From Eledone cirrhosa (Eukaryota): DNA of 64,000 nucleotides. The DNA is taken from assembly GCA_964016885.1 (NCBI GenBank), contig OZ024745.1, forward strand, positions 118,110,001-118,174,000, given 5' to 3'. A program made the position numbers and the translations under genes. Below are positions 2,548 to 61,106 of this stretch, piece after piece (within the stretch, counting starts at the first letter, position 1; each line of letters begins with the position of its first letter). The notes beneath the pieces were generated by a model, which saw only the letters and a list, made by a program, of their open reading frames with translations, was not told the DNA's origin and did no database searches.

Positions 2548-2832
2548 ATGATGCCAGAATTCCCTTTTCTTTAAATCCATCAACCAATGACCTCCACCAT
2601 CCCAATCATCACCTTCTCCTACCACCAGAAAAGGTATAAATACACCATATTACTTGGACAATCGGTTTCCTGATGATTTCTCCTGAATGAAACAGTTCTA
2701 GTCCTGTAGAAGCAATCTCTATATTAAATATATATATATAACATATATATACTGTAGAGTGCTTCGAATCTGTTATAAATAAATTTGTTGAATAACCAAC
2801 AAATTAAATAACTCTTTGTTTATATATATATA

Positions 2833-3600
2833 AATAGTAAATCAAACAAAAGAACTAGAACTAGAAATATTATTTGGTACTCTCCCCCATTCTCATTAGG
2901 AGTTAAAATACCTGTAGCAAACATATTTTTCAAAGCATTAGATAAATGTTTTCCTAAATCCCATAGATACCATTCTATTTTTAACAGACATACTATAAAA
3001 CTATCTTACTCTACTACTATGAACATAGCACAAAATATTAATAGAATTAATAATAGAAACTTAAATTTAAATACAAACCAAATAAACCAAAATAACAATA
3101 TTAATATTACAAATAACAGTATTAATACTAATAATAATCGTAACTTTCCTATTGACAACAACTCTGGAAAATGTAACTATAGAAATGAATTAATTTGCTC
3201 TTTACAGAATAATTATCTAGATAAAAACTTAGTATATAAATGCATAGTAAAAACTAGAGATAAAATATATAACTATATAGGAGTCACTTCTACAAAATTT
3301 AAGGAATACTGGTATAATCACAAACATACATTTAATAGATCAGACAAAAAATGTTCAACACCACTTTCACATCTAATTTGCTACTTAAAAGACAATAATA
3401 TTGACTATTCAATCTCTTGGGGAACGATTTCGAAAGCGCCCGCATACCGAAATATGGCTCTTTCAAGAATTTGTCATTTGTGTATTGAGGACATTTTTCA
3501 TATACTTACCAGCCAAAACTTTATTAACAAAAAGAAAGAATTATTCAGTTCTTGCAGACATCGCCAAACTAAAACATTCAGAAGTATCTATAATCTATAG
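2833..3600 (+). pseudogene. GIY-YIG endonuclease ORF of a PLE, no RT domain present
   Basis: 62 in-frame codons precede the listed Met at 3019. Contains the LVY...YIG motif, CxxC plus conserved Glu, and an N-K-x-x-E C-terminus. Confidence 0.85.
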
Positions 3601-4982
3601 AAAATATTATCTACATCTCACCTGTTTACAATTAATATGTCTTCACTATGTTTTGTTGATGTTTTGCGGTGATTATTAGATGATGATTTTCTTTTTAACT
3701 GATATTTTTCAAATGATACTCTTTTTAAATTGTTTTTAAATGATATTTTGAAATATATCTTTCTTGTGATAGTTCTAATGATGTTTCTGAATACACTTTG
3801 GGTGTCTCTAATATTTCTTCCTAATTGACTACATAGACTTTAACATTTGCAGCGATGTAGATAATGCTATCTAAATACATATGTAAAAGAATTTTTATCT
3901 TTCAAAATATGTAATATAGGATACCTTATAATTATATATAAAATAATATATAAAAAATTTTCTATATATATTTTGCATATATCTTAATTGAATATTCTTT
4001 TAAAGTAAATTCTAGTATAAACGACAAATGTAACCTAACTATTTTTACTAAAAAGCATTGGAGTTATCTTTTCCTTTATAATGTAACACGCTTAAATATT
4101 TCTTCTAAGTAACAACTAAACTTTACATAAATATTAAATTTTCTGTATAATTTCGTTAACTTATTAAACTTTGTAAATGTATTCCTATCTTGATTGAACT
4201 ATAGAATGCATAAAATAATCTTCTCTAATAAAAATAGAACTACTTTCTTTTTTCTTAACTATATATTGAAAATGTAAACACGAAATTTTTCGAAACCCTT
4301 AACATATATAAAAATATGTAAAATATCTATCAAAGGAAAAAAAAACATATATACTCACCAAAATTATTTATATAAATATTTATATAAGTAACCTGTTGTA
4401 ATATAATAAAGTAAATTATACTTACAACCTTAATTCTTCATAAAATATACTTATAAATATTATCTATATAATATTATAACTCACGATTTGAATAGATCCA
4501 ATAATTACTACTATCTCTCAATTTTTTAAATTAGTATTCCACCACTTCAACACATTTATAATTCTCATATTATTTTATAGATACTACCAAAATATATAAT
4601 TATAAAATTAAATAAATAATTATAATTATATCACTCTCTTTACACCATCACTGATTTGATCCATACAATTATATTTTAATAATAATAGTGTATTTCTAAA
4701 TATAATATACTTGTTTTCTTATAATCATTCCTTAAATTTTCTTACACCCTAATATTAATATTAACATCTCTCTCTTCTTACATTAAAAATAAAAAAATAA
4801 AAAATTATCCTAATAATTATTTAAATTTACCTAGCGTCTAAGTATAACGATCATTTTCAACTGCACGTTTAGCCTCATTAACATATTTCATCCTAAGATT
4901 TGAAATTTCTTTCACTATCCAAAATGAACTTAAAACGATAAGTTCTTTTTTCTGGATATGTCAATATTTATAAAACAATTTT

Positions 4983-5037
4983 TGTATTTTATCTGATGAG
5001 CGCGTACCAAAATTTTGGTACCCTTGAAATATATATA
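4983..5037 (+). ncRNA. Type I hammerhead ribozyme, 3' strand of stem I displaced by a SINE insertion
   Basis: tgtattttat-CTGATGA(4993-4999)-stem II gtaccaa/ttggtac-GAAA(5026-5029)-palindromic AtatataT-A. The stem I partner ataaatta reappears once the SINE at 5040-5201 is removed. Confidence 0.7.
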
Positions 5038-5039
5038 AT

Positions 5040-5201
5040 TGTTTCTACTTTTGGTACAAGGCCAGCAATTACCCAGTACAATACTGGTACTTTATTTTAT
5101 CGACCCCGTAAGGATGAAAGGCAAAGTTAACCTCAGCGGGATTTGAACTCAGATCGTAAAGCGAAGTAACTATGCTGGAAAGCATGTCTGACCCTCTACC
5201 G
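5040..5201 (-). mobile_element. tRNA-derived SINE, family A (core resembles the Meta domain)
   Basis: B box gagttcaaatccc and core ctttgcctttcatccttacggggtcgataaaataaagtaccagt on the minus strand; ATAAT duplicated at 5035-5039 and 5202-5206. Confidence 0.85.
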
Positions 5202-58339: not shown

Positions 58340-58770
58340 GTATATATGTATACAAAATCACCAGGAGAGATGACCCCTTAGCCTTTGTCAAGGCAGAATT
58401 CTAGGAGAAGGAAAACTCTGATATAACACCTGCAACCCTGATGGTATCCAATAATGTTGACTTGTTCTTCTTTTTGGTAAATATCATCTTGGTTAAGAGA
58501 GTGGGACTGGCTTTGTGCAGTGGCTTTGCTCACTATAAAAGCTTCATGGCACAGGCATTGCTTTATATCTGGAGATCTCTCTGCACTTGTCGTCACATGG
58601 TACCATGGGCCCAGCACTATGTGTCAATAATTGTCACAAGTGTAGTGTGTATACCAGAGTTTTCAAGTCGCTGGCTGGACTAAACAGTCACACTCGTTCA
58701 GCGCATCGGTAGGGGTTCTCCTACATGGATATAAAGTAGTGGCCGTACTCGAAAACGAGTTGGCAGCCAC
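58340..58770 (+). mobile_element. RTE-derived non-autonomous fragment with a degenerate C-terminal C2H2-like motif
   Basis: 58635-58712 translates [25 protein letters not shown], like the RTE ORF C-terminus; short hairpin tail ctcgaaaacgag. Confidence 0.45.
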
Positions 58771-59134
58771 CCTATATGTATGTATATATATATATATATA
58801 TATATATATATATATATATATAGGTGTGTATGTAGGTGTTTATATATTTTTATATGTATATATATGTATGTATATATATATATATATATATATATATATA
58901 TATAGGTGTGTATGTAGGTGTTTATATATTTTTATATGTATATATATGTGTGAATGTGTATATATATATATATATATATATATATATATATTTGTGTGTA
59001 TGTGTTTTTATTTATATATGGGTGTATCTGTGTATATATGTGTATATATATATATATATGTATATATATATATATATATGTATGTGTATATGTGTATATG
59101 TATATATATATATATGTGTATATGTGTATATATT

Positions 59135-59927
59135 CTAGGGCGGGTAAAATTCCCGAGATCCATGGATGTGTTCTCTCCAGCGGTCTCTGTCCCTCATTAT
59201 TGCTGCCATGTCCTGCGTCTCCAACAGACCAGTGGCTGTCGTTAGGGCATCAACATACGTTAACCTTAGTCTTCCTCTTCCAGTGTGTCCATGTAGGGGC
59301 TCCCACAGGAGCACTGAGTACAATGTCAACTCTGGATGCCGGTGAGCATGTCTAGCTAACCTCAGTCTCCTCTATGTCACTTTTGAGCTGATTTTTGGGA
59401 GGCTCCCATACAGCTCCGAGTTTTTCATCCTCAGTGTATACTAATTAATGTTCAGAGCCATCCTCAGCATTCTTGTGTAGCACCCATCCACCATCTGAGT
59501 GAGTTTCTTGGTCAGTGTCCAAGTCTCAGACCCGTACAACAGCACAGACTCTACTACAGCAATGAAGAGGTGGATTTTCAGGTCTTTACGAAGGTCCGAC
59601 TTCCACACCGATCTCAAGCTGTGGCACGCTGCCCAGGCTTTGCTCTTCCTCTCAACTATATCATCTTCCGTATTCCCAAATACAGGAAGTCCTCAACCAA
59701 TTCTAGCGGCTTCCCGCTTACATTAGTGATTCCCTCTGGCTTCTCAACATTCTCTACCAGATATTTTGTTTTAGTCTCATTCATTCTCAGCCCCACACTC
59801 ATTGACACAGTCTCAACCCCCTGCATCAAATCCTCTGCCTCCATCACTGTATTTGTCACCAAAACTATGTCGTCGGCAAATTCAGCATCTGATATCTTTT
59901 TTGCCTTAACTCTCTTGCTCTGAGCCA
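59135..59927 (-). mobile_element. 5'-truncated RTE-type LINE (RT FADD motif to C-terminus, frameshifted)
   Basis: KISDAEFADDIVLV...GLRMNETKTKY...[16 protein letters not shown]...GR.RLTYVD...MRDRDRWR. Confidence 0.9.
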
Positions 59928-59930
59928 TGT

Positions 59931-61106
59931 ATGTATAAATACAAACTTAAAAGAACCAACACGGCTCTCTCAGAACTCATATGGTCCTTGAAAGACAAAA
60001 ACATTAAATATACCATCTTTTGGAAGAAGGTTTCTTCTGCGTCTTCATACTTGAACAGCTCTCTATCTAAAATCTGTAATCTCTGCCTAAATGAAAAATT
60101 TACCATTATCTCTAATCTAGATTCTATAATAAATAGACGTACAGATTTGTTTTCTATCTGCTTGCATAAATTCCATAAGACTTTTCACAAAGTATACAGC
60201 TAATATTCAATTCTTTATCAATTTAGAATCTTTTCTCAAAGGCACATATACATACACCTCTTTTAAAATATACCCATCTTCCTACCTTACTTCAAAGGGT
60301 ATTATACACTCTATAATACTTGTTTACTCATTACCCTCACTCTATCTTCACCTTGTAAAATCCTTCGTAACATATACATTTGTTTTTGACGCTAGATTAT
60401 TCATCCTTAATTTATTATTTTTTTCTCCCCATCATCTAACTCATTCTTAATACATATTAACTCTTTCTTCGCACATATTATCAATTCCTTCAATATACAA
60501 ACCTTAACTTCACATCATTTTTCTCAAATCCTTCAATACACAAACCATAATAATTTTTTCTCTTCGTTAATTTTCAAATTTCCATAATACTTGTAAACAT
60601 ACACACAATTTTTTTTTTTTTGACGTTAGAATATTCATCCGCAATACATTATTCTTTTCTCTCTATCATCAAACTTTTTAATCTCAATACATATTAACTC
60701 CCTCTCCTTCTTCGTACATATTTTTCCCTTCGTTAATTTTCAAATTCTTTTAATTTATACATTATCTTCCAACGGTTTTCAACCTCTCTATGTAAAACAA
60801 TATATCTTTTCTCAGTTATAAAAACTATCTCTTTCTCTCTATCACCCATCTCTCCCTCTCCACCCCTTTTTTTCATCCTTTCCACCCCCGCTCTCTAAAC
60901 AAAATATTTTCCCAATATCACACATCAATCTAAAATTACTTTTCATATGTTGATTTAAAACTGCACTATCCACAAGTGTTTTTTAGCCTTCATATCATGT
61001 CCTCCTGTATTATCTGATGAAAACACAAATATTATTGCATGATGATGTTTGTTTTTGAAATGCGCATAATAAAATACATGGAACTCCTTTAACCATCTTT
61101 TGATCT
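59931..61106 (+). mobile_element. PLE 3' fragment: GIY-YIG C-terminus (59931-60203), pyrimidine-rich 3' region, hammerhead
   Basis: TALSELIWSLKDKNIKYTIFWK...ICNLCLNEKFTII...INRRTDLFSICLH aligns by eye with the other GIY-YIG copies. Ends at (TA)n. Confidence 0.85.
61006..61078 (+). ncRNA. Type I hammerhead ribozyme with palindromic stem III
   Basis: tgtattat-CTGATGA(61014-61020)-long stem II (caaatattatt/gatgatgtttg)-GAAA(61057-61060)-tgcgca-T-A-ataaaataca. Predicted cleavage after A61068. Confidence 0.8.

Follow-up and report, generated by a model that had tools for sequence, protein, structure and literature searches.

Five families of truncated Penelope-like elements, with hammerhead ribozymes, in the genome of Eledone cirrhosa

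A stretch of 64,000 nucleotides from Eledone cirrhosa (GenBank assembly GCA_964016885.1, contig OZ024745.1, forward-strand positions 118,110,001 to 118,174,000; hereafter the window) holds five diverged pieces of GIY-YIG endonuclease (EN) sequence. A sequence-only reading of the window had proposed all five, and all are real. Comparison with other loci of the same 3.0-Gb genome (designated by L-numbers) identifies them as 5′-truncated Penelope-like elements (PLEs) of five families, F1 (2833), F2 (11201), F3 (23882), F4 (57100) and F5 (59936), members of a large radiation with abundant predicted hammerhead ribozymes. The 713-residue open reading frame (ORF) of L037, the F4 reference copy, recovers four of them as a query: 57100–57780 at 85%, 2818–3582 at 36%, 23882–23466 at 38% and 59949–60185 at 27%. 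This query misses the fifth, 11201–11305, which matches the C-terminus of the PLE protein of L262 at 72% (E 6e-10). The core of the reverse transcriptase (RT) is reached by none of the five, and the 57100 copy begins at residue 480 of 713. Two ribozyme-end fragments, 2557–2728 (+) and 25193–25026 (−), were overlooked earlier. The features are listed below, with UTR for untranslated region and SINE for short interspersed element.

2557–2728, +: 3′-end fragment of an F4-related Hydra-type PLE; it carries boxes resembling CCAAT and TATA, has its hammerhead core at 2670 and ends in (TA)6; 77% to the L037 3′ end, and a descriptor hit
2753–2820, +: direct copy of the F1 terminal tail, ahead of the truncated body; 82% to the F1 tail of L166
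2833–3600, +: F1 (Hydra motifs); end of the RT thumb, linker (CxCx5C with C>Y), GIY-YIG EN with CxxC and CxH
3601–5346, +: F1 3′ UTR, hammerhead and tail; core at 4993, palindromic helix III ATATATAT, ending in (TA)9
5040–5201, +: SINE-like insertion, which we take to be the octopus OK SINE, splitting stem I of the F1 hammerhead; missing from L166 where the two are aligned, with a 5′ end that recurs at least 8 times in the window
11201–11690, +: F2, a putative canonical Neptune-like PLE; last 35 EN codons, 3′ UTR and intact hammerhead core at 11547, preceded by (TA)14
22875–23882, −: F3 (Hydra motifs); EN interrupted by one stop, followed by the 3′ UTR, a U3-A8 hammerhead in damaged form (about 23129–23091), tail and (TA)10
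25026–25193, −: F2 3′-end fragment beginning inside the hammerhead; 87% to L262
56581–57097, both strands: two copies of a short repeat with a tRNA, head to head on either side of (TA)64, the right copy abutting the F4 5′ end; a separate repeat
57100–58352, +: F4 (Hydra motifs); residues 480–705 of the 713-residue ORF, then the first part of its own TA/TG microsatellite, the ribozyme-bearing 3′ part missing
59936–61115, +: F5 (Hydra motifs); C-terminal end of EN, 3′ UTR and an intact hammerhead with its core at 61014 and a palindromic helix III ATGCGCAT, ending in TA repeats

Within the window the linker motif CxCx5C, noted in the sequence-only reading, is complete at 57100 only. The 2833 piece has C>Y, the 23882 piece is cut within the motif, the 59936 piece begins past it, and the linker of the F2 family differs from CxCx5C. 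The 57100 and 59936 copies do not start at (TA)n on their 5′ side, and the latter adjoins a piece of an RTE-like long interspersed element (LINE). Among contigs aligned on 59135–61200 no empty F5 allele was readable; the roughly tenfold rise in depth near 60929 is not copy number.

That no copy carries RT is correct for the window and wrong as a property of the elements: the missing RT is a matter of truncation only, as all five families have RT-bearing copies elsewhere. The genome search proposed earlier, with the protein of 57091–57819 (57101–57822 in that proposal), gave 68,158 first-look candidates, and F1 gave 100,579. Intact F4 ORFs of 713–714 residues, with the motifs RWR, DKT, YRDD, CxCx5C, CxxC and CxH, were present in 12 of 15 regions chosen for long frames, and eight of the intact copies are 96.4–99.7% identical at the DNA level. 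The RT-bearing copies of F1, F3 and F5 have breaks or 5′ losses, and F2 has long frames of 995 and 868 residues. The 5′ ends of copies are scattered over many ORF positions, often reaching into RT. Where 5′ junctions were mapped by DNA alignment, (TA)3+ stands at 22 of 88 against a background of 12.7% and an inverted piece at 23 of 88; by eye, many of the remaining F4 junctions are inverted 3′ UTR. Hydra units measure 3.6–5.0 kb in this genome. A systematic sample of 79 evenly spaced 10-kb stretches (790 kb) contained 20 Hydra and five canonical EN loci, which correspond to ~76,000 (bootstrap 42,000–114,000) and ~19,000 copies genome-wide and bear out the earlier suggestion of a large and varied radiation. 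One further arrangement was seen at L168–L169 (C1706:10000–29999), a unit of ~7.5 kb in tandem; in each unit at least five hammerheads, drawn from different families, are nested around pieces of F1 and of LINEs.

The Hydra clade has been defined by DKT, RWK, CxCx5C, CxxC and CxH, no CCHH, a hammerhead and (TA)n targets (PMC8557442). The same anatomy is found here. A single ORF with RT followed by a C-terminal GIY-YIG is intact in F4 and broken or 5′-shortened in F1, F3 and F5; DKT is present in F4 and F1, F4 has RWR (K>R), and the examined F3 and F5 frames begin past both motifs. CxCx5C, CxxC and CxH without CCHH occur in F4, F5 (L162) and F3 (L170), and the window F1 has CxH with its altered linker, so that F1, F3, F4 and F5 carry Hydra motifs wherever their frames reach them. 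A hammerhead near the 3′ end and insertion at (TA)n complete the set. Each Hydra-type motif is common to 108–115 of 120 database homologues. These motifs, together with a by-eye comparison with the published alignment, support placing F1, F3, F4 and F5 in the Hydra clade; the clade had been described correctly in the sequence-only reading, and the assignment is supported for these four families and not for the 11201 piece. Partial tandems, inverted 5′ arms and one-sided tails are further likenesses to the published clade, from which the families here differ in unit length (generally <3 kb there) and in the RWR of F4 (PMC8557442). A Hydra-1_Obim is listed from Octopus bimaculoides (Craig et al. 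2021, PMC8557442 File S1); by eye, its RT motifs are unlike those found here. In Octopus vulgaris, PLEs are given as 6.83% of the genome in 190 families and simple repeats as 7.45%, with 0 occurrences of the Hydra label in the supplement and no ribozyme analysis found in the accessible part of that report (PMC13282606). A quick unrooted tree of 47 rows, which took 38 of the 120 homologues and left out F2, L205 and F3_L173, separates nine proteins of this genome and one database protein from 37 homologues (SH-aLRT 100, with a long-branch warning for F3). The split fits a lineage-specific radiation and is not a clade test. A search against PDB sequences gave nothing passing, and the ESM Atlas returned eukaryotic clusters, some members of which have HTH_animal, GIY-YIG or RVT_1, as a lead only. 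Another Hydra-type family was seen at L189 (1167–1411, 6442–6700), with a ~260-bp TA/TG block and a SINE in its 3′ UTR, on both arms of an inverted pair.

F2 does not align with the other four families (E 0.1–4). Its linker is CIDKKCITC (CX2-5CxxC), and its EN has CCHH as C-x4-C inside the GIY-YIG plus H-x4-H. These features, with YVDD and a hammerhead 3′ of the ORF, are those of Neptune-type canonical EN-containing PLEs, from which F2 differs by having DKS in place of DKG; we tentatively assign it there.

The hammerheads or relics thought to follow four of the pieces are indeed present. A three-stem descriptor finds intact hammerheads in the window at 2670, 11547 and 61014. The 4993 motif has core, stem II and stem III, with stem I split by the SINE at about 5040–5201, and at ~23090 the core is of a U3-A8 variant that is found in 17 of 20 F3 copies but is damaged here. 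The window F4 is without a ribozyme, since it stops at 58352, before it. At the level of families, the F1 type was found in 11 of 20 loci reaching 1.5 kb past the EN, the F2 core pattern in 15 of 20 copies and the F5 ribozyme in 19 of 20. The motifs are of type I, with three helices around the core CUGANGA/GAAA/UH (or U3-A8); the copies at 4993 and about 23125 are broken. Helix III is 2–4 bp and mostly palindromic (in F4, 4 bp with an 8-nt loop), so the earlier description of these hammerheads as minimal does not hold strictly, the minimal form having no helix III or loop 3 (Cervera 2014 descriptor). The AATAAA seen after the hammerheads proved weak evidence as well: it occurs ~1 per kb in this genome, is absent after the 23090 motif, and in the families of the 2833 (F1) and 59931 (F5) pieces is largely the 3′ strand of stem I. 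In stem II of F1-type motifs, both sides change at 8 of 10 pairs and the covariation score is reached by none of 500 shuffles; the set was 20 motifs of 59, chosen for diversity, and their relatedness can inflate the score.

The abundance of these motifs is well beyond chance. In the systematic sample the descriptor found 84, compared with 2–7 in five shuffles; 15 of the 84 belong to one tandem array, and without that locus the genome estimate is ~250,000 motifs (bootstrap 173,000–330,000). Exact patterns searched over the whole genome gave 85,198 matches for the F1/F5 type (control 0), 18,273 for U3-A8 (control 2) and 25,508 for the F4 type (control 0), in all 128,979 pattern matches, or candidate ribozymes, against 2 in the controls. 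Like PLE hammerheads described previously, these are type I motifs in pseudo-long terminal repeats, have a palindromic helix III suited to dimers and are mostly solitary copies; the counts there are 2,000–9,000 per genome (PMC4209133). The U3-A8 variant was already reported from Schistosoma, with about 1,300 hits (Cervera and de la Pena 2014, PMC4209133), and the axolotl has up to 120,000 retrozyme copies (PMC7229834). The ribozymes are also linked to the EN: with 4 EN hits censored, 11 of the other 21 have one on the same strand no more than 3.2 kb to their 3′ side, against a 21.5% background (p 0.002). With the strict descriptor alone, ribozymes stand behind only 5 of 20 Hydra EN hits versus a 12% background. 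The library of ribozyme segments contained a few chance motifs, and its union count of 147 is an upper figure. We also observed a second abundant U3-A8 family (core TTGAAAA, helix III ACCGGT; L276–L284), often in head-to-head pairs 20–130 bp apart.

Termination in (TA)n, as claimed earlier, is supported: of 67 sampled ribozymes, 55 are followed by (TA)4+ at most 200 bp away on the 3′ side, the background being 24%. F4 goes further, as its 3′ UTR carries a TA/TG microsatellite of 1–3 kb. All 19 F4 EN ends examined are followed by 5–42 (TA)6+ tracts with shared spacers in the same order, closed in 9 of the 19 by the ribozyme 1.8–4.0 kb on, and one internal spacer of 32 nt occurs 361 times in the genome (control 0). 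Two repeats of one F4 insertion are 99.5% identical in unique DNA and have unequal run lengths, which could come from slippage or assembly error. An inverted duplication in the microsatellite of L037 (4734–4990), in this copy only, forms a long hairpin. The suggestion that these elements seed (TA)n is correct for this one family and small in bulk. (TA)6+ makes up 5.4% of the systematic sample. Of 459 TA blocks sampled, none is of the F4 3′ UTR type, and 103, amounting to 6.9 of 43 kb, follow a ribozyme segment on its 3′ side at no more than 300 bp; chance would account for a good part of those 103. PLEs therefore do not supply the bulk of (TA)n in this genome. Compound TA/CA blocks of 2–3.5 kb at L199, L241, L243 and L248, some abutting truncated LINE pieces, are not of the F4 type.

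The short ribozyme-bearing copies, which we call mini-copies, have clustered ends. For F4 we worked through the first 100 listed matches in sequence, keeping to the two young loop types and passing over two loci, until 36 loci had been taken. Among 49 young copies, 33 begin 0–8 nt before core C3, 19 of them at −5/−6, and 16 run through this boundary. In L037 the −5/−6 position is the A of CCAGATT, 30–31 nt after TATAAA and downstream of CCAAT. A spacing of this order is usual between a TATA box and a transcription start, and many of the mini-copies likely begin at the transcription start of the element. The 3′ ends fall at +38 (18 copies), +107 (14) and +31 (6), with none at the cleavage site, and 46 of the 49 reach (TA)4 within 130 nt. 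In all 11 close head-to-head F4 pairs one arm is short and the other long (tailed), and ten of these pairs end at +105 on one side; four further head-to-head pairs of a sister loop type, selected as pairs, have the same unequal arms. For F5, 11 of 26 copies, from 20 of 22 listed loci, begin at −64 to −70; a 5′ extension of 107 in this family is an artefact, produced in longer copies where ungapped extension met a run of C. The sharp 5′ boundary and the unequal paired arms suggest copying to the 5′ end of uncleaved RNA.

The ORF anatomy, partial tandems, inverted 5′ arms, discrete 3′ ends and sharp 5′ boundary of the mini-copies are direct observations, and one course of events would account for them. 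In a partial tandem the repeated 3′ end would act as the source of a promoter (the CCAAT and TATA boxes in F4), and a transcript would start at stem I of the upstream hammerhead and be used uncleaved. Once the endonuclease had cut at (TA)n, each DNA end would prime at either of two internal positions shortly downstream of the ribozyme, which in F4 are +31/+38 and +107. Priming near the RNA 5′ end would run off at the start site and leave ribozyme-only arms of 60–135 nt; priming at the downstream repeat would give long arms that usually stop before RT. Such two-site priming with run-off would leave ribozymes outnumbering EN copies by about three to one and RT seldom seen. One-sided tails and inverted arms are general traits of PLEs. 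Two internal RT start sites with a tail between them, and the use of uncleaved RNA as template, were found in vitro for a PLE of the anole (Frangieh et al. 2024, PMC11167929). This Poseidon element of Anolis resembles the families here in those respects and in AT-rich targets cut on both strands; it differs in that its start sites have no strand difference, whereas paired arms here differ in 11 of 11 pairs, and in that the copies here end on TA patches, with arms reaching a fixed 5′ boundary after a TATA box (PMC11167929). To the in vitro model we add that the two target ends may use different priming sites and that run-off of the mini-arms at the RNA 5′ end would map the start site. For Penelope of Drosophila a promoter lacking a TATA box is described (PMC2377424), unlike the one predicted in F4.

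We hold it highly probable that EN-containing PLEs with truncated copies, an uncleaved RNA template, two priming sites and run-off mini-arms best explain the data as a whole. Several observations weigh against this explanation. No ribozyme was found downstream of 10 of the 21 sampled EN hits, and two of the 11 positive hits depend on an unconfirmed motif (9 of 21 without them). The F4 stem II is only 3 bp, for four of six motifs the folding does not improve on that of shuffles (z above −2), and an Rfam search of the window gave no hammerhead family among 150 listed of 182 hits. Hydra membership was judged from motifs and the by-eye look, the tree having compared the proteins with unlabelled homologues, and none of the Hydra-type proteins had a passing hit in Pfam, where only a weak GIY-YIG match (E 0.054) appeared. 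No intact full-length ORF of F1, F3 or F5 was found among the regions examined, and direct (TA)n marks only the 22 of 88 mapped 5′ junctions. The F4 start site is predicted from DNA alone, and F5 has no TATA box at −30.

The short copies with only a ribozyme could instead be separate non-autonomous elements, retrozyme- or SINE-like, transcribed from truncated copies that keep a promoter and mobilised in trans. Ribozymes do exceed EN hits in the sample (84 versus 25), and an identical 5′ boundary would result if short transcripts began at that same site. The tandem array in the sample, 15 hammerhead units ~450 bp apart at L256:230–9368, is like non-LTR retrozymes (PMC7229834); it is the only sampled locus that fits, and its motif is also dispersed. 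Such retrozymes are non-coding tandem units of 150–450 bp, each with a hammerhead, whereas the window copies are single and linked to ORF ends. Moreover, the +107 arm reads into the ORF leader, which is found only after the upstream repeat or in tailed copies, and it is paired with a short arm in 10 of 11 cases. We consider this alternative rather unlikely.

A second alternative places the cause of the sharp boundary in the RT, which would stall or snap back at the folded ribozyme or at a bound protein; the templates could then be longer or circular RNAs, formed by cleavage and ligation. The F4 boundary coincides with the 5′ strand of stem I, copies crossing it exist (16 of 49), and a circular-template model has been proposed for PLEs (PMC4209133). 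The F5 boundary, however, lies about 55 nt upstream of the predicted helix. In both F4 and F5 the boundary is an A after pyrimidines, which resembles an initiator. None of the mapped 3′ ends lies at the F4 cleavage site, and uncleaved RNA is the dominant template in vitro (PMC11167929). A stall of this kind appears unlikely to us.

It is very improbable that these are RT-less, endonuclease-only elements, as the window copies might suggest, or that the PLE radiation built most of the genomic (TA)n, as the microsatellite in 19 of 19 F4 EN ends and its 361-fold anchor might: the former is largely refuted by the RT-bearing copies and by 5′ ends scattered over the ORF, often into RT, and against the latter stand the 0 of 459 blocks of F4 type, with 6.9 of 43 kb beside a ribozyme end, in a sample that is 5.4% (TA)6+.

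Returning to truncated PLEs copied from uncleaved RNA, we put forward a broader reading tentatively, as one slightly less likely than not. With roughly one motif in every 12 kb, owed mostly to a Hydra radiation of its own, the genome would rank with the richest in hammerheads so far known. The mini-copies would record, in vivo, two-site priming on opposite target ends with run-off at the capped 5′ end of an uncleaved transcript, comparable to the strong-stop cDNA of LTR elements. The ribozyme would be kept by selection, as the covarying stem II may indicate, for a step other than the making of the template.

Other features of the window were noted in passing. The tRNA-bearing repeat of ~270 bp (56581–56803, −; 56964–57097, +) has a 47-bp leader followed by a tRNA-like part, called as Ala (GGC or AGC) by ARAGORN in 11 of 13 copies, and is flanked by (TA)n. 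Its own 3′ end is repeated upstream in 8 of 13 copies, as in the partial tandems of PLEs; it has 1,532 first-look candidates, and no hammerhead was seen in it. Possibly it is a SINE-like element mobilised by PLEs. A tRNA-headed, RT-less EN element was ruled out, the repeat adjoining F4 here only and at 0 of 13 other loci. A nuclear receptor exon-like frame at 55163–55690 (−) is 95% to the Octopus bimaculoides vitamin D3 receptor, which marks the host as an octopus; F4 and F5 sit 1.4–5.4 kb from it on the opposite strand, probably in an intron. A tandem array of a 60-bp unit (about 38 copies) occupies 5996–8270, and Rfam matches a tRNA at 16815–16878 (32.3 bits), where ARAGORN makes no call.

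The kind of element is already known: a (TA)n-targeting Hydra family with a hammerhead and a PLE content of 6.8% are in print for octopuses, and those described here are new families of a described clade. In the open-access literature searched we found no report of ribozymes on such a scale, of a fixed 5′ boundary or of a microsatellite-bearing 3′ UTR, and these lift the finding above routine. F4 targets (TA)n and brings along sequence of the kind it inserts into, though it explains little of the microsatellite mass of the genome. The ribozyme load is far above the counts in the papers cited here and is invisible here to Rfam and Pfam; therefore annotation misses it. What PLE hammerheads do and how the tandem and inverted structures arise have been called open (PMC8557442, section 15). 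In the young families described here, which have intact ORFs and short copies by the tens of thousands, the proposed positions of transcription start, of both priming sites and of cleavage are fixed and can be tested.

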